Shown here: in pieces, positions 6,487 to 41,430 of the stretch | How positions within the stretch are numbered: the stretch's first letter is position 1 | Layout of the letters: every line of letters starts with the position of its first letter | Source: Escherichia coli | GTDB taxonomy: Bacteria > Pseudomonadota > Gammaproteobacteria > Enterobacterales > Enterobacteriaceae | DNA length: 64,000 nucleotides | Reading direction: 5' to 3' (one strand) | NCBI RefSeq assembly: GCF_046105845.1 | Contig: NZ_CP151004.1 | Program-made: the position numbers and the translations under genes | Notes under the pieces: generated by a model | The model's database searches: none | The model's input: only the letters and a program-made list of their open reading frames with translations | Told to the model about the DNA's origin: nothing

Positions 6487-6680
6487 TTGTCTGTCCGGCA
6501 GTGCGTTTCGTTATGTTTTGTTTTAGAGATGTAAAGAAATAGCATGGCAAAAATCCGAAGTATAGCGACTTATTTGCGCATTAATGCCGTCGTAAAGGGT
6601 GACTAACGAATCAACTGTTAAAGAAAAGTAAATTCAGCTAAGTTGATTGCTTACAAAAGATGAAATTCAGAGGCGGTAGA

Positions 6681-7580
6681 ATGTCGCGAAAAGATGGGGT
6701 GTTGGCGCTACTGGTAGTGGTCGTATGGGGGCTAAATTTTGTGGTCATCAAAGTGGGGCTTCATAACATGCCACCGCTGATGCTGGCCGGTTTGCGCTTT
6801 ATGCTGGTTGCTTTTCCGGCTATCTTTTTTGTCGCACGACCGAAAGTACCACTGAATTTGCTGCTGGGGTATGGATTAACCATCAGTTTTGCGCAGTTTG
6901 CTTTTCTTTTTTGTGCCATTAACTTCGGTATGCCTGCTGGTCTGGCTTCGTTGGTGTTACAGGCACAGGCGTTTTTTACTATCGTGCTTGGCGCGTTTAC
7001 TTTCGGTGAGCGACTGCATGGCAAACAATTGGCGGGGATCGCCTTAGCGATTTTTGGCGTACTGGTGTTAATCGAAGATAGTCTGAACGGTCAGCATGTG
7101 GCGATGCTCGGCTTTATGTTGACCCTGGCGGCAGCATTTAGTTGGGCGTGTGGCAACATCTTCAATAAAAAGATCATGTCGCACTCAACGCGTCCGGCGG
7201 TGATGTCGCTGGTAATCTGGAGCGCATTAATCCCAATCATTCCCTTCTTTGTTGCCTCGCTGATTCTCGATGGTTCCGCAACCATGATTCACAGTCTGGT
7301 TACTATCGATATGACCACCATCTTGTCTCTGATGTATCTGGCGTTTGTGGCGACAATTGTTGGTTATGGGATCTGGGGGACGTTACTGGGACGCTATGAA
7401 ACCTGGCGGGTTGCACCGTTATCGTTACTGGTGCCCGTAGTAGGACTGGCAAGTGCGGCACTATTGTTGGATGAACGCTTAACGGGTCTACAATTTTTCG
7501 GGGCGGTGCTCATTATGACCGGGCTGTATATCAATGTATTTGGCTTGCGGTGGCGTAAAGCGGTAAAGGTTAGAGGCTAA
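6681..7580 (+). CDS. eamA: Cysteine/O-acetylserine exporter (DMT/EamA family)
   Basis: ORF 6660..7580; conserved start MSRKDGVLALLVVVVWGLNF at 6681 gives 299 aa as in EamA/YdeD. Confidence 0.93.
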   Translation: MSRKDGVLALLVVVVWGLNFVVIKVGLHNMPPLMLAGLRFMLVAFPAIFFVARPKVPLNLLLGYGLTISFAQFAFLFCAINFGMPAGLASLVLQAQAFFTIVLGAFTFGERLHGKQLAGIALAIFGVLVLIEDSLNGQHVAMLGFMLTLAAAFSWACGNIFNKKIMSHSTRPAVMSLVIWSALIPIIPFFVASLILDGSATMIHSLVTIDMTTILSLMYLAFVATIVGYGIWGTLLGRYETWRVAPLSLLVPVVGLASAALLLDERLTGLQFFGAVLIMTGLYINVFGLRWRKAVKVRG

Positions 7581-7585
7581 ACCAT

Positions 7586-7629
7586 ACGCACAGAATGTGA
7601 TGTCAGCACTCTGTGCGTCTGCTTTTATC
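7586..7629 (+). terminator. eamA terminator: 9-bp stem (acgcacaga / tctgtgcgt) followed by a T-rich tract
   Basis: Hairpin plus gcttttat; the T-tract overlaps the stop codon of the convergent GntR-family gene (7625-7627). Confidence 0.55.
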
Positions 7630-8323
7630 GCGGGAAAAAGTACTTTACCTGGAACTCGAAAATATTGCTGTAAAGTAACGAATAATCCAGCGGAATAGAG
7701 TTACTATCCACAGCCTGGGTCTGAATTTTAAGTATGGGATCCCGTGGGCTGATCCGTAAAATACTGGCGATTTCTGGGGTAGGAAAAGTAGGGGAGAAAG
7801 TTTCAAAGGTGCCAATGATTTTGATCCCGCATTCGTTCTCAATATACGAAAATTTGGATTTTTGCATATGTGCTACGGTTAAATCAGGAAAACGTGCCAC
7901 TGACATCCACGTTTCTTCTAATTGTGCTGCATTATCCTCAATGAATCGCAGTCTCTTTATGTAATAAACCTGCTCACCAGTCACTAAATTCAGCTCAGTC
8001 GCAATAGGGGGAGAAGCATCCTGCACTTCAAATTTCATAATCTGACTTCCTGCCTCCTTGCCGCTTTTATGCGCAATTTCACTGAAGCTGTTCATGTGAT
8101 CAATGTGTGCAACAAAATTCTTTTTTTGAATGTATGTTCCTGAACCATGCTTTCTATGAATAACTCCTTCGCCTTCCAGCAAGGATAATGCCTTACGCAG
8201 GGTATTACGCGAAACATTATAACGAACAGCGAGTTCAGCTTCTGACGGCAACAAATCACCAACATGCCATGAATAGCCATTGATCTCGGATTTAAGTAAG
8301 CGGGCAATCTTTTGAAAAATCAC
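7625..8323 (-). CDS. GntR/HutC-family transcriptional regulator (N-terminal wHTH + UTRA effector domain)
   Basis: 232 aa; the segment LPSEAELAVRYNVSRNTLRKALSLLEGEGVIHRKHGSGTYI is a typical GntR HTH. Divergent from the PTS operon. Absent from K-12 by synteny (from memory). Confidence 0.85.
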   Translation of the reverse strand: MIFQKIARLLKSEINGYSWHVGDLLPSEAELAVRYNVSRNTLRKALSLLEGEGVIHRKHGSGTYIQKKNFVAHIDHMNSFSEIAHKSGKEAGSQIMKFEVQDASPPIATELNLVTGEQVYYIKRLRFIEDNAAQLEETWMSVARFPDLTVAHMQKSKFSYIENECGIKIIGTFETFSPTFPTPEIASILRISPRDPILKIQTQAVDSNSIPLDYSLLYSNIFEFQVKYFFPR

Positions 8324-8437
8324 TTTTGCACCTTTTAAGAGCCATTGAAAACAAGGGGTTGAGTCCTGATTGGTTTATCGTATGGCCGAGTCGTTTAATT
8401 ATTACCCTGATGTTGAACAACTTTATTGCTGTATTAC

Positions 8438-8520
8438 TGTGATCAATGTACCAGGACGTATAGCTACTGCGGGATATGATATTTACACAATGTAATCTGT
8501 TATATACCAGTAAGGGAAAA
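8438..8520. promoter_or_regulatory. Divergent promoter region with a CRP-like site (TGTGAtcaatgTACCA, ~8438-8453) and a near-palindromic HutC-type operator candidate (CTGTTATATACCAG, ~8507-8520) just upstream of the EIIB start
   Basis: Motifs read from sequence. Compared with CRP consensus TGTGA-N6-TCACA and with HutC-family dre-like palindromes (tGGTATAtACCa); both assignments are inference. Confidence 0.3.
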
Positions 8521-8521
8521 T

Positions 8522-8833
8522 ATGAAAAAGATATTGTTAGTTTGCGCTGCGGGCATGTCAACCAGTATGCTGGTTAAACGTATGATTGATCATGCTAACG
8601 CTATTTCACTTGAAGTTAATATTTCCGCATTGGCGATTGCAGAGGCTAAAGGGAAAATTAAAAATAACGAAGTTGACGTTGTTTTACTTGGCCCGCAAGT
8701 TCGCTTTCAGAAACCAGAGATTGAAGCTGTTGCACAGGGGAAAATGCCTGTAGCTGTTATCGAGATGAAAGACTATGGCACCATGAACGGACAGGCAGTT
8801 CTTGAATTTGCGATGAAACTACTGCAAGAGTAA
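8522..8833 (+). CDS. PTS EIIB component, lactose/cellobiose family
   Basis: 103 aa; MKKILLVCAAGMSTSMLVKRM carries the phospho-cysteine motif typical of Lac/Cel-family IIB. Confidence 0.9.
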   Translation: MKKILLVCAAGMSTSMLVKRMIDHANAISLEVNISALAIAEAKGKIKNNEVDVVLLGPQVRFQKPEIEAVAQGKMPVAVIEMKDYGTMNGQAVLEFAMKLLQE

Positions 8834-24920: not shown

Positions 24921-25080
24921 ACTATATTAGTTACAACATCCTATGTGCCTTTATCATTAACGGGTGCCATATGCCACACCTGTAAATGTTGTAAGCTTGT
25001 AGGTAATTTGTAAGTAGTGTCTTGAGAATGTGATCGTAATCACGTTTAATAGGACGACTTTTCCACGCCTGAAGATAACC

Positions 25081-25995
25081 ATGATTGTTCGTCCACAACA
25101 ACACTGGCTGCGCCGTATTTTTGTCTGGCACGGTTCAGTATTATCCAAGATATCCTCGCGCTTACTACTCAATTTTCTCTTTTCTATCGCTGTTATTTTC
25201 ATGCTGCCCTGGTACACGCATTTGGGCATTAAATTCACCCTCGCACCGTTCAGCATTCTCGGTGTCGCCATCGCCATTTTTCTTGGTTTTCGTAATAATG
25301 CCGGGTACGCCCGTTACGTTGAAGCGCGAAAACTTTGGGGGCAGTTGATGATTGCCTCACGGTCGTTACTGCGCGAGGTAAAAACGACATTGCCAGATTC
25401 GGCAAGTGTAAGGGAGTTTGCCCGGCTGCAAATCGCCTTCGCTCACTGTTTACGCATGACATTACGCAAACAACCACAGGCGGAAGTGCTGGCTCAATAT
25501 CTCAAGACGGAAGATCTTCAGCGAGTACTGGCTTCGAACTCTCCAGCTAACCGTATCTTGTTAATAATGGGGGAGTGGTTGGCGGTTCAGCGCCGCAATG
25601 GGCAGCTTTCAGATATCCTGTTTATTAGTCTCAACGATCGGCTTAACGATATTTCAGCGGTTCTGGCAGGCTGCGAGCGCATTGCCTATACGCCAATTCC
25701 CTTTGCCTACACCCTGATTTTGCATCGTACCGTTTATCTGTTTTGTATCATGCTGCCGTTCGCGCTGGTCGTGGACCTGCATTACATGACGCCTTTTATC
25801 TCTGTGCTGATTTCCTACACTTTTATTTCGCTGGATTGTCTGGCGGAAGAACTGGAAGATCCCTTCGGTACTGAAAACAATGATTTACCGCTGGATGCCA
25901 TCTGCAACGCTATTGAAATTGACCTGTTACAGATGAACGATGAAACAGAAATTCCAGCAAAAATTCTTCCCGATCGTCATTACCAGCTGACGTAA
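25081..25995 (+). CDS. yneE: Bestrophin-family membrane protein
   Basis: ORF 25030..25995; conserved start MIVRPQQHWLRRIFVWHGSVL at 25081 (304 aa). Confidence 0.88.
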   Translation: MIVRPQQHWLRRIFVWHGSVLSKISSRLLLNFLFSIAVIFMLPWYTHLGIKFTLAPFSILGVAIAIFLGFRNNAGYARYVEARKLWGQLMIASRSLLREVKTTLPDSASVREFARLQIAFAHCLRMTLRKQPQAEVLAQYLKTEDLQRVLASNSPANRILLIMGEWLAVQRRNGQLSDILFISLNDRLNDISAVLAGCERIAYTPIPFAYTLILHRTVYLFCIMLPFALVVDLHYMTPFISVLISYTFISLDCLAEELEDPFGTENNDLPLDAICNAIEIDLLQMNDETEIPAKILPDRHYQLT

Positions 25996-25998
25996 TAT

Positions 25999-26757
25999 TT
26001 ACTCCGTACGCCGGGCAACAATAAACAGACGCGGAAATGCCAGCAGTATCTCTCCGTTCTCTTGCAGTGGATACTGCTCTTCCAGCATCTGATGGTAGCG
26101 CGTAAGAAAATGCTGCTGTTCGCTCTCGGTCAGATCCTGTAACCACGGACGTAATCCAGTGGCGGTCACCCAATCGATAATCGCCTGGTGCGACGGCATC
26201 TGGTGATAGTAGGTGGTTCGCCAGATATCGACCTCACATCCGGCTTCGCTCAAAATATCGTAGTAAGCATGAACGCCAGCCAGCGGCTCACGCCCGCGAT
26301 CCGGGTAGTTTTGTTCCCAGGCAACTTCGCGCATAAGCACATGGGTCGGCTCCAGCCAGTTATCTGGCATCTGTACTGCCAGCACGCCCTGCGGATTAAG
26401 TAAAGAAACCAGATGAGGAAACAATTCGTAGTGGTCGGGCAGCCATTGCAGTGAGGCATTAGCGAAAATCAGATCCAGTGTCTGTTCCGGTTGCCAGTTG
26501 CGGATATCTGCTTCCACAAACTGGCAGTCTGGCAAAGCACTGCGCGCTTCGGCAATCATCGCCGGAGACGAGTCGATGCCTGTTATCCTGGCCGCAGGCC
26601 AACGTTGATGCAGCAGGGCGGTGCTGTTACCTGGGCCACAGCCAAGATCGGCAACGTATTTGATATTCTCCAGCGGCACTCTGGCAAGCAGCTCCACCGC
26701 CGGACGCGATCGTTCAGCGGCAAAGTGCAGATATAAAGAGGGGTTCCAGTCAGACAT
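25999..26757 (-). CDS. tam: Trans-aconitate 2-methyltransferase
   Basis: 252 aa; SAM-binding motif [10 protein letters not shown]. Confidence 0.93.
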
Positions 26758-26813
26758 TTATTTACTCCCGTCAGCGCGTTACCCCTAGTGTAGATAAAAC
26801 TGATAAATTCGCC

Positions 26814-27104
26814 TCACGGCATCAACCCATTGAACAGACGTTTTTTACGCGGCCCGGTCATTAAAGATTCCAGTTTCGCGACACAGGTTTTGTAGTGGGG
26901 CGTGGTTTTATGGAATGCCACTGCGTCTTCATCTTTATAGGCTTCGTAGATATAAAAGCGCGAATTTACTTCAGGGTCCTGTAAGACATCGAAGCGCAAA
27001 TTGCCTTCTTCCTGTACCGAGCCCAGGTGGTTCTGGCGAAAAACTTCGATAAACTCGTCAACCTTGTCTTCATGAACGTTAATTTCAACCAGTGTGACGT
27101 GCAT
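26814..27104 (-). CDS. lsrG: (4S)-4-hydroxy-5-phosphonooxypentane-2,3-dione isomerase
   Basis: 96 aa; matches LsrG. Confidence 0.93.
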
Positions 27105-27127
27105 AATTCTTCTCCTTAAATCCGCAG

Positions 27128-28003
27128 TTACTGTTTTTCACTCAGATAGAGTTCATATGCCCGATCAGCCGTTTCGTTATGGTGTACCACCGCCTGTACG
27201 GCTTTCATCATCGCCACCGGATGGTCAGACTGGAAAATATTACGCCCCATATCCACACCAGAAGCGCCCTGATCGATAGCCTGCCAGCACATTTCCAGCG
27301 CCTCGCGCTCCGGTAACTTTTTACCGCCAGCAATAACAATGGGTACCGGACATCCGGCAACAATCCGTTCAAAACCTTTTTCGACATAATAGGTTTTGAT
27401 AATTTGCGCCCCCATTTCAGCGGCGATTCGGGTAGCCAGCGAGAAATAACGCTGATCGCGCACCATATCTTTGCCCACGCCAGTCACGGCCATGGTCGGC
27501 ATTCCCACTTTCATTCCGGCATCGACCAGCTGAATAATATTTTTGATCGATTGATGTTCATATTCGCTGCCGATATAAACCTGCGCCGCCACCGCGCAAC
27601 TGTTCAGGCGCACGGCGTCATCCATCGATAACGCCACGGCTTCATTACTTAATTCCGCCAGAATAGAGTTCGCACCTGACGCCCGCAGTACCACCGGCTT
27701 ATTGGTCGCAGGGGGGACTACGCTGCGCAAAATGCCGCGCGTACACATTAATACATCGGCATGTTCAAACAGCGGGGCGATATTTATATCAATGCGTTCA
27801 AGTCCGGTAGTCGGCCCCTGAAAATAACCATGGTCAAAGGCCAGCATCACGGTGTTACCCGTTTTCGGATTAAATATCCGTGATAAGCGTGACTGCATTC
27901 CCCAATCCAGCGCACCGCAACCTTTCAGGGTAAAAGGGATATTTTGTTGCGGTTGATCGGTACGAAAATCTTTACCATCTTTAATATCGTCTAAATCTGC
28001 CAT
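27128..28003 (-). CDS. lsrF: 3-hydroxy-5-phosphonooxypentane-2,4-dione thiolase (aldolase fold)
   Basis: 291 aa; matches LsrF. Confidence 0.93.
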
Positions 28004-28029
28004 AACGTACTCCGGTTAAGTAATGCACA

Positions 28030-29052
28030 TCAGAAATCGTATTTGCCGATATTCTCTTTGTTGAATATCACGCGCTCCGGTAACAGTACGATGCCATTAC
28101 CATCCGCTTCGTAGTCATAGCCCTGAACGCTGTTTGGCGAGACTTCCACCTGACCTACGCCCTGGATATCCAGCTTGTCGCCCGTTTTCATTGATCCTTT
28201 TTTCAATAATGCATCCGCGACATACACTGAAATTTTGCCTTGCTGAACCACATCCCACAGGCCAAATTCTTTCACCGTGCCGCGTTCCACATATGGACGC
28301 ATCACGTTTGGCGTACTGAATCCGACAATCGCAACTTTGTCATTTTTCAGGTTTTCTGCGGCTTGTGCGGCAGCGGGCAGGGCATTGGCATCGGGGGCGA
28401 TAATGGCGTCGAGATCGCTATACGCTTTTAATATTCCTTCTGCGGTTTGTAACGATTTAGTGGCATCGTTATAGCCAAACTGCGTAGTGACAATTTCCCA
28501 GCCTGGATGCTCTTTGGCGATTTTCGCTTTCGCTTCTTTCACCCACTGGTTTTGGTCCGTAACGGTGGGGCTTGAGTAGAAAAAAGCGACTTTGGCTTTG
28601 TCTTTATTCACCTGACGCGCCGCCATATCCACCAACATACCTCCCAACTGGGCGGGCGTTCCCTGATTAATGTAGTAAGAGCGGCACTCCGGTTTAGTAT
28701 CAGAGTCCCAGGTCAGCACTCTCACACCACGTTGCATGGCGCGTTTCAGTGCCGGACACAAGCCATCAGGCGAAACCGCAGAAACGATAATGGCGTTATA
28801 ACCTTGATTGACGAAGTTATTAATCAACTGTACCTGACCAGAAACACTGGGTTCTGTCGGCCCGTCGTAGGTCACATCAACGCCCAGCTCTTTACCCGCT
28901 TGTTGTGCGCCGTTGCCGCCGCTGGTAAAAAATCCCACGCCAACCAGTTTGGGAATAAATGCAATACGCTCTGCGGCCTGCACATTCATAGAGATTGCGG
29001 CAATGCCAAGAGCGCTAAGTAAGGCGATTTTCTTAAAGCGATGAAGTGTCAT
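28030..29052 (-). CDS. lsrB: Autoinducer-2 periplasmic binding protein
   Basis: 340 aa with signal peptide; matches LsrB. Confidence 0.93.
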
Positions 29053-29063
29053 GAAGATATCCT

Positions 29064-30056
29064 TTATGGCAATGGGTTATTGGCCCGACGCGCCAGCCAC
29101 TCTTTAATTTGCTGGCGATGCAGGCTAACGGAACGACCTACGACAACGACGATAAGTAGCGCACCGGAAAGGGCGCTGGACACCTGATTTGGCACTCCTG
29201 CCATTTGCAAACCTTGTTGCAAATATCCCACTAATAAAACCGCAATGGCGGTGCCGATAATGGAACCGGAACCACCATAAATATTGGCACCGCCAAGCAC
29301 CACGGCGGTGATGGCGGGCATCAGAAACGACGCACCGAGATCGGAACGTGCTGAACCAAAATACGATACCAGCAGCACAGCGGCGACTGCAGACGCCAGC
29401 CCCGTCATGGCATAGAGCGCACATAAGGTACGGTTAACTGGAATCGCGCTATAAAGCGCCACGCGCGGGCTTTGCCCAATCAAAAACACGTTACGTCCGG
29501 CATGGGTTTTATGCAGCCAGAGCCAGAAAACGAGGAGACATATCAGAAAGATAATCAGCGGAACAGGGAGTCCCAGCACATCCAGGTTAGCGAAATCTGT
29601 AAACGCCATCGGGAATCCACCAATACCTTCGTACCCCGTCGCTCCGGCCATCCCGGAAAGCAGCAGGGCGCTTCCGGCAAACAGATACAGCGTGCCAAGC
29701 GTAATCACCAGCGGGTTAACTTTGGTATAGATAATTAATCCGGCGTTGATCAGCCCGCACAATGCGCCGAGCAGTAAGGTCAGGAGAATCGCCAGCGGCA
29801 TCGGCACACCACTTTGAAACAGTACGCCCAATGCAATGGCGCAGAGGCCGATGGTCGAACCAAACGAAATATCGATCCCGCCACTGACAATCACCATCGT
29901 CAGCGGTAGGGCGACAATGCCAATGCAGATAAAGTCACTGGTGCTGAACAGCAACATATTGAGATCTAACATCCGCGGGTTAATTGCACCAAATGCGACA
30001 ATCTCAATAACGAGCAGTGCGGCAAGAGCCAGTTCCCAACCGTAGCGAATACGCAT
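29064..30056 (-). CDS. lsrD: AI-2 ABC transporter permease
   Basis: 330 aa. Confidence 0.93.
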
Positions 30057-31084
30057 TATGCGGCCTCCCGTTTTTTACCTGACGAAGCGGGTTTAACGGA
30101 TGGCGGTGGCATCATAAAGCGGGCATATTTTTGCCGCCGCAGATTACGTTCCAGCGCACAACGCAGGCGTCCATCAAACACCAGCACCGCCAGCAGAACC
30201 AGGCCCGCGATAAAATCGTTCCACCATGCCGGAATGCGCAACAGCACCAGTACGCTATCGATCTGCGTCAGGAACCATGCGCCTAATACCGCACCGATGA
30301 TCGCGCCGGAACCGCCGAGCAAACTAATGCCGCCCAGCACGCAGGCTGCAATTGCTTTCATCTCCAGCCCGGTACCGGTCTGGTTGGGGATAAAACCAAT
30401 CTGCGAAGCAAACACAATTCCCGCCAGTGCCGCCATGCAGCCGTTCAACGAAAATGCCACAATGCGAATGGCTTCCGTACGAACGCCCAGTTGACGAGCG
30501 CCCTGTAAATTATCGCCCGTGACATAAAAACTGCGTCCAAACGCCGTCTTTGCCAGCAGCCAGGCCATAAATGCCACCAGAATTATCGTCAACCAACCAA
30601 TCGCGGAAACGCCAAACAGCAGCGGTGCGGAGAGCTGTTTCAGTTCGGCGGGTAACCCTTCAATCCATTTGCCGCCAGTCCACAGCAACATGATGCCTCT
30701 GTACAACCCTAACGTGCCAAGGGTGGCAACAATGGCAGGGATCTTTAGCCACGCGACCAGGACACCGTTGAAAAATCCCGCGAGCAAACCAAGCAGTAAA
30801 GTCGCGACACAGGCAACAGGTAGTGAATATCCTGCGTTCAGTAACATCCCCAACAGCACCGCGCACATTCCGGTAATCGAACCCACTGAAACATCAATAT
30901 TGCGCGTAAGCATTACCAGCGTCGCGCCCATTGCCAGCAGGATCAGGATTTGCGCGCTGCTATAAACCATGGTCAGCGTTTGCACACTTAAATACTGGCG
31001 GTCGAGAAAACCGGGTAATACAAACAGCAGCACCACCGCCAGCAGTGCCGTGATTTCACGGTTGTTCTGAATAAATTTCAGCAT
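30056..31084 (-). CDS. lsrC: AI-2 ABC transporter permease
   Basis: 342 aa; 1-nt overlap with lsrD and 7-nt overlap with lsrA. Confidence 0.93.
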
Positions 31085-32613
31085 GACGCCTCCTGACGCT
31101 GACTATCGCCGAAGGCAACGCGCATAATGGTCTCGACATTAATATCGCGTCCGGTCAGTGCAGAGTGGGCAATTTCGCCCTGATGCATCACATATACGCG
31201 ATCTGCCATCAGTTCGATCTCTTCCAGATCAGAGGAGATAAGCAGCACTGCCACATTCTGTGCGGCGATGCTGCGCAACAGCTGGTAGATATCATTACGG
31301 ACTGAGACATCCACGCCGCGCGTCGGCTCATCGACAATCAATACTTGCGGCGAGGCTTCCAGACATTTGGCAATCAGGATTTTTTGCTGGTTGCCGCCGG
31401 ATAAGGTCCGCGCAGCTTGTTCCGGTTGGTTAAATTTAATATTCAGCGCCCGACGATAACGTTCCAGTGTGGCGTTATCTTTCGCGGTTTTCGCCCAGAA
31501 TCCACGAAGGTTATGAGTAAGGGCGCAGACATTCCAGGCCAGCGAAGCATCGAGATTCAGTCCGGATGACTGGCGATCTTCCGGCAGATAAACCAGACCG
31601 CGCAGTAAACGTTCTCCAGTGGATAATTTATTGATCTCTTTACCATTCAGCATAATGCGTCCGCCACGCAAAGTACGCAGACCATAGAGCGTCTCGGCCA
31701 GTTCTGTGCGTCCGGCCCCCACCAGCCCAGCCAGCCCCAGAATTTCTCCGGCATTAAGCGTCAGGCTGACATTCATAAAACCTTCGCCGGTCAGGTTTTC
31801 CAGTGTCAGCACCGGCGTTCCGGCGGCATGTTGTGGGCGGTTGCCAGGTAACTCCAGCCATAATTTTTGGCTGGCAGAGAGCGATTTTTCCCGTAGCGCT
31901 GGCGTGATGGCCTGAATAATGTCGTCGGTAGACAGTTCGATGGTTTTGCCGCTTAAGGCGATAGTTCCGTCGCGCATCACGCTAATCCGATCGGCAATCT
32001 GGCGAATTTCCGGCAGCTTATGCGAGATAAAAACAATACCCACGCCAGTAGCAAGCAGCTCCCGCAAGCGACTAAACAAGCGTTCGGTTTCCGCAGGGGT
32101 AAGCGAGGCGGTAGGTTCATCGAGGATCAGAATCTGCGAGTCGCGCATCAGCCCACGGAGGATTTCCACCATTTGGCGATCGGCGACATCCAGCGATCCT
32201 GCCAGACTATGCAGATCAAACTGGCAGCCCAGCGCCACCAGCAAGTTATTCATTTTCTGTATGGAGAGTTGTTTTTTTGCCAGACCAAACAGGATGTTTT
32301 CTTTTATCGACAGGCTTGGAAAAAGCAGCGGTTCCTGGGGAACGAGATAAATGCCCAGCTGATGAGCATGAACTGGCGTTAATCTGGTGTAGTTGTTGCC
32401 CCCAATCTCAAGCGTACCGCTATCAGCAGGGGTAATACCGGCAATAATCTTCATTAACGTCGATTTACCGGCACCATTGCCGCCGAGCAGGGCGTGGACC
32501 TCCCCCTGGTGCAACGTAAAATCGATGCCTTTCAGGACATTAACCCCTGAATACTGTTTATAAACCGAGCGGGCGCAAAGTAGCGGTAACGCGCGGGTAT
32601 CACTCGTTTGCAT
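31078..32613 (-). CDS. lsrA: AI-2 ABC transporter ATP-binding protein (tandem ABC domains)
   Basis: 511 aa; two Walker A motifs ([18 protein letters not shown]). Confidence 0.93.
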
Positions 32614-32861
32614 ATTTCCCCCGTTCAGTTTTGCAGGTGAGTTTTGAACAAATGTATTTTTGCTTTTAATTTGTTCATAACCTTAGGCGGGCATTGCATA
32701 TATTTCCGACGAATAGATCACAATTTATGCTATTTTGATTTTCACGGTTGCGTTTGTTCATGCTCGTAGAGTCAAACTGTGGTTGCTATCACAGATATAA
32801 ATGCGCAAGAACTGAACAATTGCATTAAAGATTTAAATATGTTCAAAGTGAAGAATGAATT
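32614..32861. promoter_or_regulatory. lsrA/lsrR divergent control region with a CRP-like site TGTGGttgctaTCACA at about 32778-32793
   Basis: CRP half-sites read from sequence; lsr is known to be cAMP-CRP and LsrR controlled. Confidence 0.5.
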
Positions 32862-33815
32862 ATGACAATCAACGATTCGGCAATTTCAGAACAGGGAATG
32901 TGTGAAGAAGAACAGGTCGCGCGGATCGCGTGGTTTTACTACCACGACGGGCTGACCCAGAGCGAGATCAGCGATCGTCTCGGGCTGACCCGTTTGAAAG
33001 TGTCGCGATTACTGGAGAAAGGGCATCAGTCCGGCATTATTCGCGTGCAGATTAATTCTCGCTTTGAAGGCTGTCTGGAATATGAAACACAATTACGTCG
33101 TCAGTTTTCGCTACAACATTTCCGGGTGATCCCTGGGCTTGCGGATGCTGATGTCGGCGGGCGACTGGGGATAGGCGCGGCGCATATGTTGATGAGTTTA
33201 CTTCAACCACAACAGATGCTGGCGATTGGTTTTGGCGAGGCAACCATGAATACGCTGCAACGCTTAAGTGGTTTTATTTCGTCACAGCAAATTCGCTTGG
33301 TCACGCTCTCCGGTGGCGTCGGTTCTTATATGACGGGTATCGGGCAGCTTAACGCGGCGTGCAGTGTGAATATTATTCCGGCTCCGTTGCGGGCATCCTC
33401 CGCTGACATTGCCCGTACGCTAAAAAATGAAGATTGCGTCAAAGACGTTCTGCTAGCCGCGCAAGCAGCGGATGTGGCGATTGTCGGCATTGGGGCTGTG
33501 AGTCAACAAGACGACGCAACAATCATTCGCTCCGGCTATATCAGCCAGGGCGAACAGTTAATGATTGGTCGAAAAGGGGCGGTTGGCGACATTTTAGGCT
33601 ACTTTTTTGATGCAAAAGGTGACGTTGTCACGGATATTAAAATACATAACGAACTGATTGGCTTACCTTTAAGCGCGCTGAAGACCATTCCCGTCCGGGT
33701 TGGCGTAGCAGGGGGAGAAAATAAAGCCGAAGCCATTGCCGCTGCAATGAAAGGCGGCTATATCAACGCACTGGTTACCGATCAGGACACAGCAGCGGCG
33801 ATTTTACGTAGTTAA
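32862..33815 (+). CDS. lsrR: Transcriptional repressor of the lsr operon (SorC family)
   Basis: 317 aa. Confidence 0.93.
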
Positions 33816-33893
33816 ATTTGCATGACCTTATTACCGGGAATGATGGAGAACGTATAGAGGAACAGACAGAACGCATAAGCCGAGGATAATCTA

Positions 33894-35486
33894 ATGGCTC
33901 GACTCTTTACCCCTTCAGAATCAAAGTACTACCTGATGGCGCTGGATGCAGGCACCGGAAGTATTCGGGCTGTGATATTCGACCTGGAAGGCAATCAAAT
34001 AGCAGTGGGACAGGCGGAGTGGCGGCACCTGGCAGTACCGGACGTTCCTGGTTCTATGGAGTTTGATCTCAACAAAAACTGGCAACTGGCGTGTGAGTGT
34101 ATGCGCCAGGCGCTTCACAACGCCGGCATAGCCCCGGAGTATATCGCTGCCGTTTCGGCATGTTCGATGCGCGAAGGCATTGTTTTATATAACAATGAAG
34201 GAACACCGATCTGGGCCTGCGCCAATGTGGATGCCAGAGCGGCGCGCGAAGTTAGCGAACTTAAAGAACTGCACAACAATACCTTTGAAAACGAAGTTTA
34301 TCGCGCCACCGGACAAACGCTGGCTTTAAGCGCTATTCCCAGATTACTTTGGCTGGCGCACCATCGTTCCGATATTTACCGTCAGGCATCAACCATCACC
34401 ATGATCAGCGACTGGCTGGCCTATATGCTCAGCGGCGAACTGGCGGTGGATCCCTCTAACGCTGGCACCACGGGACTTCTTGATCTAACCACCCGTGACT
34501 GGAAACCTGCATTGCTGGATATGGCCGGACTGCGGGCCGATATTCTTTCTCCTGTCAAAGAAACCGGCACATTGCTGGGCGTGGTAAGTTCACAAGCGGC
34601 GGAACTCTGCGGTCTGAAGGCGGGCACTCCGGTGGTCGTTGGAGGAGGCGACGTGCAACTTGGTTGCCTGGGGTTAGGCGTTGTGCGTCCGGCACAAACC
34701 GCTGTTCTTGGCGGCACATTCTGGCAGCAAGTTGTAAACTTAGCCGCGCCGGTGACAGACCCAGAAATGAACGTGCGCGTTAATCCTCATGTTATTCCTG
34801 GCATGGTACAAGCTGAATCTATAAGCTTTTTTACCGGACTCACCATGCGCTGGTTCCGCGATGCTTTCTGTGCCGAAGAAAAACTGATTGCCGAACGTTT
34901 AGGCATCGACACCTATACGCTGCTGGAAGAGATGGCAAGTCGGGTGCCGCCTGGGTCGTGGGGCGTAATGCCGATATTCTCCGACAGAATGCGCTTTAAA
35001 ACCTGGTATCACGCTGCGCCTTCCTTTATTAATTTGTCTATTGATCCGGATAAATGTAACAAAGCGACGTTGTTCCGTGCGCTGGAAGAAAATGCGGCGA
35101 TTGTATCAGCGTGTAACTTGCAGCAAATCGCTGATTTCTCGAATATTCATCCTTCATCGTTAGTCTTTGCAGGCGGAGGTTCAAAAGGGAAATTATGGAG
35201 TCAAATTCTCGCTGATGTCTCGGGATTACCCGTCAATATTCCAGTGGTCAAAGAAGCCACCGCATTAGGATGTGCCATTGCAGCTGGCGTCGGTGCCGGA
35301 ATTTTTTCATCAATGGCAGAAACCGGAGAACGCCTGGTTCGCTGGGAACGGACGCACACACCAGACCCGGAAAAGCATGAACTTTATCAGGATTCACGCG
35401 ATAAGTGGCAGGCAGTTTATCAGGATCAGCTGGGGCTGGTTGATCACGGGCTGACGACGTCGTTATGGAAAGCGCCTGGGTTATAG
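33894..35486 (+). CDS. lsrK: Autoinducer-2 kinase (FGGY carbohydrate kinase family)
   Basis: 530 aa. Confidence 0.93.
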
Positions 35487-35495
35487 TTTCATTGA

Positions 35496-35532
35496 CAGCC
35501 ACATCATGATGACCGTGGCTGTTAGTTTTTGA
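35496..35532 (+). terminator. Rho-independent terminator after lsrK (acagccac...gtggctgt followed by tagttttt)
   Basis: Stem-loop plus T-run. Coordinates approximate. Confidence 0.6.
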
Positions 35533-36009
35533 GTATTCTTATTTCCCTTCTTTTAGATCTGGTTTGTTAAATGCCAGCTTGCAGATTCATCGTTCCATCG
35601 CCAGTAATATATTCAAGGGGAAATTGCTATTTTTCTTAAAATATTAAGCATAACCCTTATTTTATAGCGAATATTCCTAAAGACATAAATGAATGAAAAA
35701 GAGTTTTAATAGAGTTCTTTTTTAGCAATTAATGCTATTCTTTGTTAAATATGATGATGGTAATTTTCTTATTGAAAGAAACATTTTTCTTATTAAGCAA
35801 CAATAACTCATGGTTCATTTTTAAATAAAATAAGAACTATGCAATTTTTAATCTATCAATTCGAAAGTATTAGCAAATGAGCCAAATTGACACCTTCCCA
35901 CCTCCAACCAACACTCAATACAGACCTCTGACAACTTAATAAGTTTCATTTTTAACGTCTGATGACTCATCTCTTTCGTGGCTGTATTGTTTGTATATGG
36001 AGCGTTTAT

Positions 36010-39000
36010 ATGAATAGAATCTATCGCGTGATATGGAATTGCACCCTACAGGTATTTCAGGCCTGCTCGGAATTAACTCGCAGGGTAGGTAAAACATCAA
36101 CGGTTAATTTGCGTAAATCCTCTGGACTGACAACGAAATTCAGTAGATTGACGCTGGGTGTTTTGCTGGCACTAAGCGGTTCAGCGTCTGGTGCGAGTCT
36201 GGAAGTTGATAATGATCAGATTATCAATATTGATACTGATGTTGCTTATGATGCCTACCTGGTTGGGTGGTATGGCACTGGAGTGCTTAATATTTTGGCT
36301 GGCGGTAATGCCTCCTTAACCACTATTACTACCAGCGTCATTGGTGGTAATGAGAACTCGAAGGGCACCGTTAATGTTTTGGGTGGCACCTGGCGATTGT
36401 ATGATAGCGGAAATAATGCAAGGCCTTTAAATGTGGGCCAATCCGGAACGGGGATGCTGAATATTAAACAGAAGGGGCACGTTGACGGAGGCTATTTAAG
36501 ATTAGGTACTCAAGCTGTAGGCGTCGGGATGGTTAATGTTGAGGGAGAGGACTCGGTTCTGACGACCGAATTATTCGAAATAGGGAGTTACGGTACAGGC
36601 TCATTAAATATTACGGATAAGGGTTACGTCACGAGTTCAATCGTCGCCATTGTAGGATATCAGGCGAACAGCACTGGTAAGGTTGTCGTTGAAAAGGGTG
36701 GCGAGTGGCTAATAAAAAATAATGATTCCTCAATTGAATTTCAAATTGGTAATCAAGGAACTGGGGAGGCGACTATTCGCGAGGGTGGACTGATTACGGC
36801 TGAAAATACGATTATCGGTGGCAATGCCACCGGTATCGGAACCCTGAATGTGCAGGATCAAGACTCTGTCATCACGGTACGCAGAGTCTATAATGGATAT
36901 TTCGGTAATGGCACAGTCAATATTTCCAATAATGGACTGATTAATAATAAAGAATATTCATTGGTGGGCGTTCAGGACGGGTCCCACGGTGTCGTCAACG
37001 TGACCAATAAAGGGCATTGGAATTTCCTCGGAACGGGCGAAGCTTTCCGCTATATCTATATCGGTGATGCTGGCGACGGTGAACTTAATGTCTCTAGTGA
37101 AGGCAAAGTAGATTCGGGAATTATCACTGCGGGGATGAAAGAAACAGGCACAGGCAACATTACTATTAAGGATAAGAACTCCATTATCACTAATCTCGGA
37201 ACTAATCTTGGTTATGACGGCCACGGCGAAATGAATATCAGTAATGAGGGGCTTGTTATCAGCAACGGAGGAAGCTCACTCGGTTATGGAGAAACCGGCG
37301 TCGGGAAGGTTAGCATCACCACGGGGGGGATGTGGGAGGTCAATAAGAATGTCTATACCACCATTGGTGTTGCGGGCGTCGGAAACCTCAATATCAGCGA
37401 TGGCGGTAAGTTCGTATCGCAAAATATTACTTTTTTGGGCGATAAAGCAAGCGGTATCGGCACACTGAACCTGATGGATGCGACATCATCGTTCGATACT
37501 GTAGGTATCAATGTCGGTAATTTTGGTAGCGGCATCGTAAATGTCAGTAATGGTGCCACCCTTAATTCAACGGGCTATGGATTTATCGGAGGAAATGCCT
37601 CCGGTAAGGGGATAGTTAATATTTCAACGGATAGTCTCTGGAATTTAAAAACGTCATCTACTAACGCCCAATTGTTACAGGTCGGTGTATTAGGCACGGG
37701 TGAACTGAATATTAGCACCGGAGGTATAGTTAAAGCGCGTGATACACAAATAGCTCTCAATGACAAAAGTAAGGGCGACGTGCGGGTGGATGGGCAGAAC
37801 TCTCTTCTTGAAACATTCAATATGAACGTAGGGACGACTGGCACAGGTACGTTAACCCTGACGAATAACGGTACGCTGAATGTCGAAGGTGGAGAAGTTT
37901 ACTTAGGTGTTTTTGCGCCTGCTGTAGGAACGCTAAACATTGGTGCTGCTCACGGTGAGGCGGCGGCAGATGCCGGATTTATCACCAATGCGACGAAAGT
38001 GGAGTTTGGTCTTGGCGAAGGCGTTTTTGTCTTTAATCATACCAATAACAGTGATGCCGGCTACCAGGTCGATATGCTGATTACGGGTGACGATAAAGAC
38101 GGAAAAGTGATGCATGATGCAGGCCATACGGTGTTCAATGCAGGGAATACTTATAGCGGTAAAACGTTGGTCAATGGCGGCCTCCTGACCATTGCGTCAC
38201 ATACGGCAGATGGGGTAACGGGCATGGGTTCGAGTGAAGTAACCATTGCAAACCCCGGTACGCTCGACATTCTCGCATCAACGAACAGTGCAGGAGATTA
38301 CACGCTGACCAATGCGCTCAAAGGCGATGGCTTGATGCGAGTGCAGCTGTCATCCTCCGACAAAATGTTTGGCTTTACCCATGCAACAGGAACTGAATTC
38401 GCCGGTGTTGCCCAACTGAAAGACAGTACCTTCACACTGGAACGCGACAACACCGCTGCGCTTACTCACGCGATGCTTCAGTCTGACAGTGAAAATACCA
38501 CATCGGTAAAAGTGGGAGAGCAATCCATTGGTGGACTAGCCATGAATGGCGGTACGCTCACTTTCGATACGGATATACCTGCTGCGACGCTCGCGGAGGG
38601 ATATATCAGCGTCGATACGCTGGTTGTCGGCGCGGGTGACTACACCTGGAAAGGCCGTAACTATCAGGTAAACGGGACGGGCGACGTGCTTATCGACGTG
38701 CCTAAACCGTGGAATGATCCCATGGCGAATAACCCTCTGACGACGCTCAATTTGCTGGAACACGATGATAGTCATGTCGGCGTTCAACTGGTGAAGGCGC
38801 AAACGGTTATTGGGTCGGGTGGCTCATTAACGTTACGTGATTTACAGGGCGACGAGGTGGAAGCGGACAAAACGTTACATATTGCACAAAACGGGACAGT
38901 GGTCGCCGAGGGTGATTATGGATTCCGCCTCACGACCGCTCCTGGTGATGGTTTGTATGTTAACTATGGGCTGAAAGCGCTGAACATCCATGGTGGGCAA

Positions 39001-41430
39001 AAGCTGACGTTAGCCGAACATGGCGGAGCCTATGGCGCAACGGCCGATATGTCGGCAAAAATCGGTGGTGAAGGGGATCTGGCAATCAATACGGTGCGAC
39101 AGGTTTCGCTTTCTAACGGTCAGAACGACTATCAGGGGGCAACCTACGTTCAGATGGGGACATTACGTACCGATGCGGATGGCGCTCTGGGCAATACTCG
39201 GGAACTGAACATCAGCAACGCGGCCATCGTCGATCTTAATGGATCGGAGCAGACGGTAGAGACATTCACCGGGCTGATGGGTTCGACTATTTTGTTCAAA
39301 GAAGGTTCGCTGACGGTGAATAAAGGTGGGATCAGTCAGGGCGAACTGACAGGTGGCGGAAACCTGAATGTTACAGGGGGAACACTGGCTATCGAGGGGC
39401 TTAATGCACGCTACAATGCGTTAACCAGCATTAGCCCAAATGCGGAAGTCAGCCTCGACAATACGCAGGGGTTAGGCAGAGGAAATATTGCCAATGACGG
39501 TCTGTTAACGCTAAAAAACGTGACCGGCAAACTGCGCAATAGCATAAGCGGTAAAGGTATCGTGAGCGCAACCGCCAGCACAGACGTAGAGCTGGATGGC
39601 GATAATAGCCGCTTTGTGGGGCAATTCAACATCGATGCAGGCAGCGCGCTCAGCGTCAACGAGCAGAAAAACCTGGGTGATGCTTCCGTTATCAATAATG
39701 GCCTGCTCACCATCGCCACTGAGCGTAGCTGGGCGATGACGCACAGTATCACCGGTAGCGGCGATGTGACAAAACTGGGGACCGGGATCCTGACTCTTAA
39801 CAACGATTCCGCGGCGTATCAGGGTACGACGGATATCGTGGGTGGTGAAATTGCTTTCGGTTCCGACTCTGCCATTAATATGGCAAGTCAGCACATTAAT
39901 ATCCATAACAGCGGTGTGATGTCGGGAAATGTCACCACTGCAGGTGATGTGAACGTTATGCCAGGGGGGACACTGCGTGTCGCTAAAACCACTGTCGGCG
40001 GTAACCTGGAGAATGGTGGCACGGTTCAAATGAACAGCGAAGGGGGGAAACCGGGGAATGTACTGACCGTTAACGGCAACTATACCGGAAACAATGGCCT
40101 GATGACGTTCAACGCGACGCTGGGTGGCGATAATTCGCCCACGGATAAAATGAACGTGAAAGGCGATACCCAAGGGAATACTCGCGTTCGGGTTGATAAC
40201 ATTGGCGGCGTCGGTGCACAAACGGTCAACGGTATTGAACTCATTGAGGTTGGCGGTAATTCTGCAGGTAAATTCGCGCTGACCACCGGAACTGTCGAAG
40301 CTGGGGCTTACGTCTACACGCTGGCTAAAGGGAAGGGGAATGACGAGAAAAACTGGTATCTGACCAGTAAATGGGACGGCGTAACGCCAGCGGATACACC
40401 CGATCCCATCAATAATCCCCCTGTTGTGGATCCGGAAGGCCCATCAGTTTATCGCCCGGAGGCCGGAAGCTATATCAGCAACATTGCCGCAGCCAACTCG
40501 CTGTTTAGCCATCGCTTACACGACCGTCTGGGTGAGCCGCAGTATACAGATTCACTGCATTCTCAGGGTTCGGCAAGCAGTATGTGGATGCGTCATGTCG
40601 GGGGGCACGAACGTTTCAGGACCGGTGACGGCCAGCTAAATATTCAGGCTAACCGCTATGTATTGCAGCTAGGAGGCGATTTGGCGCAGTGGAGTAGCAA
40701 CGCGCAGGATCGCTGGCATCTCGGCATCATGGCAGGCTATGCCAATCAGCACAGTAATACTCAGAGTAATCATGTGGGTTATAAATCGGATGGGCGCATC
40801 AGCGGTTACAGCGCAGGACTGTACGCGACCTGGTATCAGAACGATGCGAATAAGACCGGCGCTTATGTTGACAGCTGGGCGCTGTATAACTGGTTTGATA
40901 ACAGCGTCAGTTCCGATAACCGTTCTGCTGACGACTATGATTCTCGCGGTGTGACGGCCTCTGTTGAGGGGGGGTATACCTTTGAAGCGGGAACATTTAG
41001 CGGCAGCGAAGGGACGCTGAATACCTGGTACGTCCAGCCACAGGTACAAATCACCTGGATGGGTGTGAAAGATTCTGACCATACCCGGAAAGACGGAACA
41101 CGCATTGAAACGGAAGGCGACGGAAACGTGCAAACGCGACTTGGGGTGAAAACCTACCTGAACAGCCATCACCAGCGTGACGATGGTAAACAGCGTGAGT
41201 TCCAGCCTTACATTGAAGCGAACTGGATCAACAACAGCAAAGTCTACGCCGTGAAGATGAATGGTCAAACCGTAAGCCGTGATGGTGCGCGTAATCTCGG
41301 TGAAGTACGTACCGGGGTTGAGGCGAAAGTAAATAACAACCTTAGCCTGTGGGGGAATGTCGGTGTGCAACTAGGTGATAAAGGCTATAGCGATACTCAG
41401 GGCATGCTGGGAGTGAAATATATCTGGTAA
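36010..41430 (+). CDS. yneO: AIDA-I/Ag43-type autotransporter adhesin with extended signal peptide region, degenerate repetitive passenger and C-terminal beta-barrel translocator; intact
   Basis: ORF 35962..41430. The likely start is the ESPR motif MNRIYRVIWNCTLQVFQACSELTRRV at 36010, followed by a classical signal peptide (LTLGVLLALSGSASGAS). The passenger carries repeated G-x-GTG-x-LNI-type units; the barrel ends ...GMLGVKYIW. Positional orthologue of the K-12 yneO/ydeK pseudogene between lsrK and hipB (from memory). Confidence 0.88.
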   Translation: MNRIYRVIWNCTLQVFQACSELTRRVGKTSTVNLRKSSGLTTKFSRLTLGVLLALSGSASGASLEVDNDQIINIDTDVAYDAYLVGWYGTGVLNILAGGNASLTTITTSVIGGNENSKGTVNVLGGTWRLYDSGNNARPLNVGQSGTGMLNIKQKGHVDGGYLRLGTQAVGVGMVNVEGEDSVLTTELFEIGSYGTGSLNITDKGYVTSSIVAIVGYQANSTGKVVVEKGGEWLIKNNDSSIEFQIGNQGTGEATIREGGLITAENTIIGGNATGIGTLNVQDQDSVITVRRVYNGYFGNGTVNISNNGLINNKEYSLVGVQDGSHGVVNVTNKGHWNFLGTGEAFRYIYIGDAGDGELNVSSEGKVDSGIITAGMKETGTGNITIKDKNSIITNLGTNLGYDGHGEMNISNEGLVISNGGSSLGYGETGVGKVSITTGGMWEVNKNVYTTIGVAGVGNLNISDGGKFVSQNITFLGDKASGIGTLNLMDATSSFDTVGINVGNFGSGIVNVSNGATLNSTGYGFIGGNASGKGIVNISTDSLWNLKTSSTNAQLLQVGVLGTGELNISTGGIVKARDTQIALNDKSKGDVRVDGQNSLLETFNMNVGTTGTGTLTLTNNGTLNVEGGEVYLGVFAPAVGTLNIGAAHGEAAADAGFITNATKVEFGLGEGVFVFNHTNNSDAGYQVDMLITGDDKDGKVMHDAGHTVFNAGNTYSGKTLVNGGLLTIASHTADGVTGMGSSEVTIANPGTLDILASTNSAGDYTLTNALKGDGLMRVQLSSSDKMFGFTHATGTEFAGVAQLKDSTFTLERDNTAALTHAMLQSDSENTTSVKVGEQSIGGLAMNGGTLTFDTDIPAATLAEGYISVDTLVVGAGDYTWKGRNYQVNGTGDVLIDVPKPWNDPMANNPLTTLNLLEHDDSHVGVQLVKAQTVIGSGGSLTLRDLQGDEVEADKTLHIAQNGTVVAEGDYGFRLTTAPGDGLYVNYGLKALNIHGGQKLTLAEHGGAYGATADMSAKIGGEGDLAINTVRQVSLSNGQNDYQGATYVQMGTLRTDADGALGNTRELNISNAAIVDLNGSEQTVETFTGLMGSTILFKEGSLTVNKGGISQGELTGGGNLNVTGGTLAIEGLNARYNALTSISPNAEVSLDNTQGLGRGNIANDGLLTLKNVTGKLRNSISGKGIVSATASTDVELDGDNSRFVGQFNIDAGSALSVNEQKNLGDASVINNGLLTIATERSWAMTHSITGSGDVTKLGTGILTLNNDSAAYQGTTDIVGGEIAFGSDSAINMASQHINIHNSGVMSGNVTTAGDVNVMPGGTLRVAKTTVGGNLENGGTVQMNSEGGKPGNVLTVNGNYTGNNGLMTFNATLGGDNSPTDKMNVKGDTQGNTRVRVDNIGGVGAQTVNGIELIEVGGNSAGKFALTTGTVEAGAYVYTLAKGKGNDEKNWYLTSKWDGVTPADTPDPINNPPVVDPEGPSVYRPEAGSYISNIAAANSLFSHRLHDRLGEPQYTDSLHSQGSASSMWMRHVGGHERFRTGDGQLNIQANRYVLQLGGDLAQWSSNAQDRWHLGIMAGYANQHSNTQSNHVGYKSDGRISGYSAGLYATWYQNDANKTGAYVDSWALYNWFDNSVSSDNRSADDYDSRGVTASVEGGYTFEAGTFSGSEGTLNTWYVQPQVQITWMGVKDSDHTRKDGTRIETEGDGNVQTRLGVKTYLNSHHQRDDGKQREFQPYIEANWINNSKVYAVKMNGQTVSRDGARNLGEVRTGVEAKVNNNLSLWGNVGVQLGDKGYSDTQGMLGVKYIW

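Follow-up and report, generated by a model that had tools for sequence, protein, structure and literature searches.

A canonical, functional-looking lsr locus in an Escherichia coli chromosome, with putative CRP sites and LsrR operators in its divergent spacer

The window analyzed here, i.e., the whole 64,000-nt stretch of an Escherichia coli genome, very probably (roughly 93%) carries a canonical chromosomal E. coli lsr (LuxS-regulated) locus that looks fully functional. An earlier note on this sequence had described positions 26814-35486 as a complete eight-gene lsr locus, and all reading frames are indeed intact: the open reading frame map of this region places lsrG, lsrF, lsrB, lsrD, lsrC, and lsrA on the minus strand and lsrR and lsrK on the plus strand, with the following products, identities to K-12, and family scores.

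26814-27104, minus strand: lsrG, phospho-AI-2 (P-DPD) isomerase, 96 aa; 96/96 residues identical to K-12; NCBIfam NF007791, 191.8 bits (cut-off 135)
27128-28003, minus strand: lsrF, 3-hydroxy-5-phosphonooxypentane-2,4-dione thiolase, 291 aa; 288/291 identical; NF006081, 559 bits (cut-off 297)
28030-29052, minus strand: lsrB, periplasmic AI-2-binding protein, 340 aa; 339/340 identical; NF011937, 700 bits (cut-off 384)
29064-30056, minus strand: lsrD, ABC permease, 330 aa; 330/330 identical; NF011612, 597 bits (cut-off 500)
30056-31084, minus strand: lsrC, ABC permease, 342 aa; 339/342 identical; NF011961, 666 bits (cut-off 388)
31078-32613, minus strand: lsrA, fused two-domain ABC ATPase, 511 aa; 498/511 identical; NF011967, 950 bits (cut-off 586)
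32862-33815, plus strand: lsrR, SorC/DeoR-type repressor, 317 aa; 314/317 identical; NF011947, 617 bits (cut-off 486)
33894-35486, plus strand: lsrK, AI-2 kinase (FGGY family), 530 aa; 528/530 identical; NF008187, 1001 bits (cut-off 528)

All eight products aligned over their full length and scored above the curated NCBIfam equivalog cut-offs, and BLASTP against the K-12 proteins returned equal lengths, no gaps, and 97-100% identity. The eight gene coordinates agree with the PGAP annotation of AST215 (the nearest genome) and of K-12 MG1655, and the layout, with lsrKR divergent from lsrACDBFG, is the same in annotated AST215 and K-12. Checked against K-12, no lsr gene contained a frameshift, gap, or internal stop. 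At the DNA level, positions 25999-35486 are colinear with K-12 W3110, with 205 substitutions over 9488 nt and no indels; divergence from K-12 amounts to 2.2% of nucleotides, and to 25 amino acid substitutions, 13 of them in LsrA. The likeness to K-12 MG1655 (b1511-b1518: lsrK, lsrR, lsrA, lsrC, lsrD, lsrB, lsrF, lsrG) extends from gene order, orientation, and lengths to the 7-nt and 1-nt gene overlaps, the 248-nt spacer, both LsrR boxes, and both CRP elements. Synteny and annotation were the same in 4174 of 5426 complete E. coli genomes (~77%), while the match to the lsr locus was partial or absent in the remainder. A pseudogenized or mosaic locus was also considered and rejected, the substitutions being evenly spread and indels absent. 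An Rfam scan of positions 25500-36500 (E ≤ 1) yielded no match.

We take the functions of these proteins to be those established for their K-12 orthologues. LsrB, LsrC, LsrD, and LsrA would then form an ABC importer for AI-2; the imported signal would be phosphorylated by LsrK, and the resulting phospho-AI-2 would be isomerized by LsrG to a product cleaved by LsrF. Both divergent promoters would be repressed by LsrR until it is released by phospho-AI-2. LsrB begins with a signal-peptide-like sequence, the Walker A, Walker B, and LSGG motifs of LsrA are intact, and so is Lys203 of LsrF, which we take to be the catalytic residue.

The transporter genes are tightly packed. As had been proposed for this locus, lsrA and lsrC overlap by 7 nt (the lsrA stop and lsrC start share ATGCTGA) and lsrC and lsrD by 1 nt (the A of TAATG, shared by the lsrC stop and the lsrD start); both overlaps are real and identical to those in K-12. 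Strong Shine-Dalgarno sequences precede lsrC (AGGAGG) and lsrD (GGGAGG), each lying within the upstream gene. From this placement and from the overlaps themselves, it is plausible that translation of the transporter subunits is coupled, and such overlaps with coupling are a common feature of ABC operons. Alternatively, the overlaps may reflect incidental compaction, with lsrC and lsrD each using its own Shine-Dalgarno sequence whether or not the gene before it is translated: both sequences are strong enough that they could allow initiation on their own, bacterial operons widely contain overlaps of 1, 4, and 7 nt, and the lsrA/lsrC overlap varies in length by genus (7 nt in Salmonella, 4 nt in Enterobacter and Klebsiella). 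However, all four genera examined keep a stop/start overlap between lsrA and lsrC, and matched synthesis would, as a general argument only, be advantageous for subunits of one transporter. We consider independent translation somewhat doubtful, and coupled translation the plausible reading.

Two further features adjoin the lsr genes.

25999-26757, minus strand: tam, trans-aconitate 2-methyltransferase; NCBIfam NF002463, 447.9 bits (cut-off 297)
35491-35530, plus strand: hairpin followed by a U-run after lsrK, candidate intrinsic terminator of lsrRK

The tam gene follows lsrG after 56 nt in the same orientation and may be co-transcribed with the lsr operon; a terminator scan of the lsrG-tam gap found no terminator-like site. 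Simple terminator scans of the divergent spacer and of the region after lsrK also returned nothing, and the hairpin after lsrK emerged on folding only (RNA fold of -17.7 kcal/mol, z = -3.85, with 0 of 200 shuffles as good). It is a probable intrinsic terminator of lsrRK. A flanking autotransporter gene is intact here, whereas its K-12 counterpart (yneO) is a frameshifted pseudogene.

We then turn to the 248-nt spacer between the divergent lsrA and lsrR, in which the following elements could be placed.

32645-32677: p-lsrA-box, lsrA-proximal LsrR operator, TGAACAAATG...ATTTGTTCA inverted repeat
32680-32685, minus strand: TAAGGT, candidate -10 hexamer of the lsrACDBFG promoter, with conserved TA...T
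32707-32722 (core): CRPI, second candidate CRP site, lsrA-proximal, half-site only; TGTGATCTATTCGTCG in the lsrA sense
32753-32761: extra copy of TTTGTTCAT, LsrR half-site-like, between the two CRP sites
32778-32793: CRPII, putative lsrR-proximal CRP site TGTGGTTGCTATCACA, matching 9/10 core positions
32813-32845: p-lsrR-box, lsrR-proximal LsrR operator, with AACAAT and AAGATTTAA motifs and repeat D1

The earlier note had claimed a good, central CRP site (TGTGG-N6-TCACA) in this divergent region. The site itself stands on its match, its local significance, and its conservation: TGTGGTTGCTATCACA has one mismatch to TGTGA-N6-TCACA and agrees with the 22-mer consensus at 14 of 22 positions. It does lie within the spacer, but it is only loosely central, occupying positions 165-180 of the 248 nt, with the lsrR ATG 76.5 nt away and the lsrA ATG 172.5 nt away. 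Relative to K-12 it carries one difference, a C to T change in the spacer of the site.

A motif of this kind might arise by chance in an AT-rich spacer (34% GC) and have no regulatory role, and across the 64-kb window CRP motifs are not significantly enriched (5 matches against 2.19 expected, a count equaled in 10 of 100 shuffles). Yet a match this good, i.e., with one mismatch or fewer, occurred in only 1.2% of 20,000 dinucleotide-preserving shuffles of the spacer (p ~0.012). In addition, the TG and TCAC of CRPII do not vary among E. coli, Salmonella, Enterobacter, and Klebsiella, and in each of these genera the site is exactly 36 nt away from the LsrR box on the lsrR side, despite spacers that have otherwise diverged. 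Published work also points away from chance: CRP activates both lsrACDBFG and lsrR, deletion of crp drastically cuts lsr promoter activity (bioRxiv 10.64898/2026.06.09.730415), and the K-12 spacer is depicted with two CRP boxes (PMC5137460). By motif match alone the site is modestly significant; the cross-genus conservation and the published CRP dependence are what make CRPII credible, and a chance match without regulatory role is exceedingly improbable. A full-text literature search with the site sequences gave no match.

Three elements had been missed in the first reading of the sequence, namely the CRPI half-site and two 33-nt LsrR operators. CRPI mismatches its core at 4 of 10 positions, having one good half-site only, and was not recovered by a motif scan allowing up to three core mismatches; it was located only via conservation and the literature description. 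In each of the four genera its GATCAC is unchanged and keeps a distance of 70 nt to the LsrR box on the lsrA side. We assign the candidate at 32707-32722 to 'CRPI' as CRPI is placed beside the TGTGCAAT octamer in PMC5137460, a secondary description on which the coordinates given here for both CRPI and CRPII rest. The order of elements drawn there for K-12 is p-lsrR-box, CRPII, CRPI, p-lsrA-box (PMC5137460 Fig. 2).

The two LsrR operators are 33-nt TGAACA...TGTTCA boxes. The p-lsrA-box, which is named in PMC5137460, comprises repeat D1 and inverted repeat I1 and is invariant across the four genera. The p-lsrR-box is the same in sequence as in K-12, where it, with AACAAT and AAGATTTAA named inside it, is reported to be essential for LsrR binding (PMC5137460, citing Xue 2009). 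The extra TTTGTTCAT copy takes part in direct repeat D2 and in inverted repeats I3 and I5; Salmonella retains its TGTTC, whereas Enterobacter and Klebsiella do not.

When the E. coli spacer was aligned with those of Salmonella, Enterobacter, and Klebsiella, both CRP elements and both operators emerged as invariant blocks in an alignment otherwise only 67% identical. Moreover, the CRP-to-operator spacings of 70 and 36 nt did not vary among the four genera, whereas the gap separating the two pairs drifted from 59 to 62 nt. From its sequence, the spacer therefore looks like two promoter modules, each with a CRP site and an LsrR operator at constant spacing: CRPII would pair with the lsrR-side operator and CRPI with the lsrA-side operator, which suggests that CRPII mainly serves lsrR. 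This allocation of sites to promoters, and the class I/class II geometry that may go with it, are proposed from the conserved spacing.

At the level of promoter elements, a sigma-70 scan of the spacer found no consensus promoter, and none is expected at activator-dependent promoters. The TA...T of the candidate -10 hexamer for lsrACDBFG is invariant in the same four genera (columns A66 A67 T71 A72), and by inference this hexamer would put CRPI at about -41.5. On the lsrR side, candidate -10 hexamers would leave CRPII at about -41.5 (AACAAT) or about -60.5 (TAAATA).

CRP activation and LsrR repression from the lsr spacer are published for K-12, for which physical binding of cAMP-CRP is likewise reported; both transcription units need cAMP-CRP, and glucose and other sugars therefore switch lsr off, as also published. 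The arrangement resembles lac/deo-type dual control, in which a weak core promoter needs cAMP-CRP and a pathway-specific repressor operator overlaps or adjoins the promoter. Unlike that type, lsr has two modules back to back in one spacer under one common repressor, and since one of the two lsr units contains the gene for this repressor, a CRP-LsrR feed-forward and auto-regulatory loop results.

The lsr system was first described in Salmonella enterica, whose locus shares the divergent lsrKR / lsrACDBFG layout, the 7-nt lsrA/lsrC overlap, the LsrR boxes, TGTGG-N6-TCAC, and the GATCAC half-site at equal operator spacing. It differs in a 255-nt spacer, in ~67% DNA identity across the spacer and gene ends, and in a CRP site with two core mismatches (TGTGGCGTTAATCACG).

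Intact frames could still encode altered function, and the alleles of this strain, i.e., LsrA A438V, LsrR V87F and N191D, and six SNPs in the spacer relative to K-12, might then shift AI-2 uptake or its control, or impair either. No other protein of the eight is as diverged as LsrA (13 substitutions, as above), and the exact LsrA sequence was not found in a collection of 15 billion proteins in which the exact LsrR, LsrK, and LsrC sequences are present. A438V is absent from K-12 and AST215, and the alanine that it replaces, which adjoins the second Walker B and D-loop, is presumably conserved among related ABC ATPases for sugars. Among the spacer SNPs, which include the C to T change in the non-contacted CRP spacer, one converts TGTGCAAT to TATGCAAT at position 2 of the octamer beside CRPI, the same octamer in which laboratory PlsrA up-mutations fall (positions 4 and 5; PMC5137460). 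However, this natural SNP lies off the positions that raised promoter strength, the amino acid substitutions are all conservative or outside the motifs checked, and the score of LsrA remains far above its family cut-off. The spacer haplotype, for its part, is the same in AST215 and strain 1190 and at least 99% identical in 78 genomes, and is thus a circulating allele. We judge altered function quite improbable, and a locus that works like that of K-12 remains the favored reading. It is decidedly unlikely, too, that the minority spacer haplotype and the unusually diverged LsrA, with its A438V, together set an AI-2 uptake threshold or rate that departs measurably from K-12; if true, this would represent a natural tuning of quorum-signal consumption.

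Taken together, this is an ordinary lsr locus of an already well described kind, with nothing new beyond strain-specific points, i.e., the six SNPs in the spacer and A438V, an LsrA substitution that is apparently private. Its significance beyond annotation is small, with the cross-genus spacing comparison as one modestly useful by-product. The strain is confirmed to have a complete lsr system and, on that account, should be able to internalize and quench AI-2 under catabolite-derepressed conditions.

The ORF map of 25500-37000 shows six minus-strand ORFs arranged head-to-tail, followed across a 248-nt spacer (32614-32861) by two plus-strand ORFs. This layout is identical in K-12 MG1655 (b1511-b1518), and the annotation under the closest megablast match to 26814-35486 (strain AST215, 99.7%) reads lsrK, R, A, C, D, B, F, G.

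Genes of the lsr locus in the ORF map, with residues of each product identical to K-12.
26814-27104, minus strand: lsrG (96/96)
27128-28003, minus strand: lsrF (288/291)
28030-29052, minus strand: lsrB (339/340)
29064-30056, minus strand: lsrD (330/330)
30056-31084, minus strand: lsrC (339/342)
31078-32613, minus strand: lsrA (498/511)
32862-33815, plus strand: lsrR (314/317)
33894-35486, plus strand: lsrK (528/530)

All eight genes are intact, as the earlier note had claimed: each protein has the length of its K-12 counterpart and aligns to it without gaps, and all eight exceed, full-length, the curated NCBIfam equivalog cut-offs. The K-12 alignment proposed there as a check revealed no frameshift: compared base by base with K-12 W3110, the DNA of 25999-35486 showed 205 evenly distributed substitutions over 9,488 nt and no indel. 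LsrF keeps Lys203, and LsrA keeps its Walker A, Walker B, and LSGG motifs. Both gene overlaps were also borne out when the junctions were read. The lsrC ATG is embedded in the 3′ end of lsrA (...TCATGCTGA; 7-nt overlap), 5 bases downstream of an AGGAGG, while lsrC ends in GCATAA, whose final A starts lsrD (TAATG; 1-nt overlap), with a GGGAGG upstream. The K-12 genes overlap at matching positions; elsewhere, lsrA and lsrC overlap by 7 nt in Salmonella and by 4 nt in Enterobacter and Klebsiella. Such overlaps are frequent in ABC-transporter operons, and these fit translational coupling without demonstrating it.

In the K-12 and Salmonella systems, periplasmic AI-2 is bound by LsrB, imported by LsrC, LsrD, and LsrA, and phosphorylated by LsrK; phospho-AI-2 releases LsrR from both operators and is degraded by LsrG and LsrF. 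With near-identical proteins, the locus studied here would be expected to act in the same way. In K-12, both lsrACDBFG and lsrR are activated by cAMP-CRP, which places them under catabolite control. Deletion of crp drastically reduced lsr promoter activity in a 2026 preprint, which also surveyed 19,795 Enterobacteriaceae genomes and predicted lsrA-lsrR CRP sites in about half of those carrying lsr (bioRxiv 10.64898/2026.06.09.730415).

The CRP site noticed earlier in the divergent region (TGTGG-N6-TCACA) held up. It has one mismatch to TGTGA-N6-TCACA, and an equally good site arose in only 1.2% of 20,000 dinucleotide-preserving shuffles of the spacer (34% GC), although the motif is not enriched across the 64-kb window (5 matches vs 2.19 expected). 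The comparative evidence is stronger. The spacer was aligned with its counterparts from five lsr loci in records of a plasmid collection, two from Salmonella and one each from Enterobacter hormaechei, Klebsiella pneumoniae, and K. aerogenes; at a mean column identity of 67%, the invariant blocks were two LsrR boxes, the TG...TCAC of this CRP site, and a GATCAC block. Other one-mismatch CRP-like matches in the window lie at 13471, 54560, 54774, and 25029-25044 (TGTGATCGTAATCACG), the last between uxaB and yneE, ~45 nt ahead of the yneE start given in the AST215 annotation.

Regulatory elements of the lsrA-lsrR spacer.
32645-32677: p-lsrA-box, 33 nt, TGAACA...TGTTCA inverted repeat
32707-32722: CRPI, predicted half-site, lsrA-sense TGTGATCTATTCGTCG
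32778-32793: CRPII, the CRP site of the earlier note, TGTGGTTGCTATCACA
32813-32845: p-lsrR-box, 33 nt, TGAACA...TGTTCA inverted repeat

The two boxes, 76% alike and starting 168 nt apart, correspond to the operators of these names in the literature. The lsrR-side box contains the AACAAT and AAGATTTAA motifs that are named within the published p-lsrR-box, a region reported as essential for LsrR binding (PMC5137460). The CRP sites were assigned from the published order p-lsrR-box, CRPII, CRPI, p-lsrA-box (Figure 2 legend) and from the position of the octamer TGTGCAAT, described as "very close to CRPI" (PMC5137460): the site on the lsrR side is thus CRPII, and CRPI is the lsrA-proximal half-site, which matches perfectly on the left but poorly on the right and is therefore missed by motif scans.

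Across the four genera (E. coli, Salmonella, Enterobacter, and Klebsiella), two spacings are exactly conserved: 70 nt between the GATCAC of CRPI and the GAACA of the lsrA-side box, and 36 nt between CRPII and the GAACA of the lsrR-side box. The CRPI-CRPII distance, in contrast, ranges over 59-62 nt, with the two boxes always 165-168 nt apart. Given these fixed CRP-to-box spacings and the variable distance between CRP sites, we infer that the spacer consists of two rigid modules, each with a CRP site, core promoter, and operator, joined by a flexible linker. A promoter scan detected no consensus sigma-70 promoter in the spacer, as expected of activator-dependent promoters; TAAGGT (32680-32685, minus strand; invariant TA...T), taken as a candidate -10 element, would place CRPI at about -41.5. 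The geometry of PlsrR is ambiguous, with about -41.5 and about -60.5 as candidate positions of CRPII. Between the CRP sites lies a third, LsrR half-site-like copy of TTTGTTCAT (32753-32761), which together with the lsrR-side box brackets CRPII (inverted repeat 32749-32760/32813-32824); its TGTTC is retained in Salmonella and absent from Enterobacter and Klebsiella.

At the 3′ ends, a hairpin with a U-run follows lsrK (35491-35530; fold z = -3.85) and is probably the terminator of lsrRK. No terminator-like structure was seen in the 56-nt lsrG-tam gap (26758-26813), so that tam may be transcribed by read-through from the lsr promoter; tam stops 3 nt short of yneE, an ORF that converges on it. 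The lsr region had no Rfam matches. Adjoining lsrK is an AIDA-like autotransporter gene of the "ECSE_1600 family" (35962-41430, plus strand; 1,806-1,822 aa), which scores 4106 bits against NCBIfam NF011422 (cut-off 2335; match from residue 17, window 36010). The gene is intact here, whereas in K-12 it is represented by yneO, a pseudogene with a frameshift, and strain 200112 has only a C-terminal beta-barrel fragment.

The region 26814-35486 was found by megablast in 5,335 of 5,426 complete E. coli genomes, with ≥80% coverage in 4,174, i.e., ~23% lack such coverage. Strain 200112 carries a degraded locus (6474-8684 of its record), in which nothing remains of lsrA or of the promoter spacer as far as the lsrR start codon, lsrC has lost its 5′ part, and a truncated lsrK abuts an autotransporter remnant. 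Complete lsrKR/lsrACDBFG sets also occur on plasmid-labelled records of Salmonella (80-194 kb), Enterobacter hormaechei (50-68 kb), and Klebsiella (692-791 kb). The records used in the spacer alignment were all typed non-mobilizable, and some lsr-bearing records may be chromosomal fragments misfiled as plasmids.

The spacer differs from K-12 by six SNPs, is identical in AST215 and strain 1190, and is ≥99% identical in 78 genomes. One SNP falls inside the non-contacted 6-nt spacer of CRPII; another turns TGTGCAAT into TATGCAAT (32692-32699, minus-strand sense), beside CRPI, at octamer position 2. Laboratory-evolved lsr promoter up-mutations at octamer positions 4 and 5 were proposed to disrupt a CytR site (PMC5137460); in our reading, they rather create TACAAT or TGTAAT, i.e., better -10 hexamers. 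LsrA is the most diverged of the eight proteins relative to K-12, and its exact sequence had no match in a 15-billion-protein collection that contains those of LsrR, LsrK, and LsrC. Its A438V substitution (window 31301 region, minus strand), located after the second Walker B/D-loop and found in neither K-12 nor the near-identical AST215, is either private to this strain or the product of a sequencing error. None of these differences suggests lost function.

Taken together, the observation is confirmed and its interpretation supported, with the refinement that the spacer also holds a further CRP element and a pair of LsrR operators. Every testable defining feature of the lsr system was found; with only small strain-specific details, this locus is an ordinary member of an already known, thoroughly described system.
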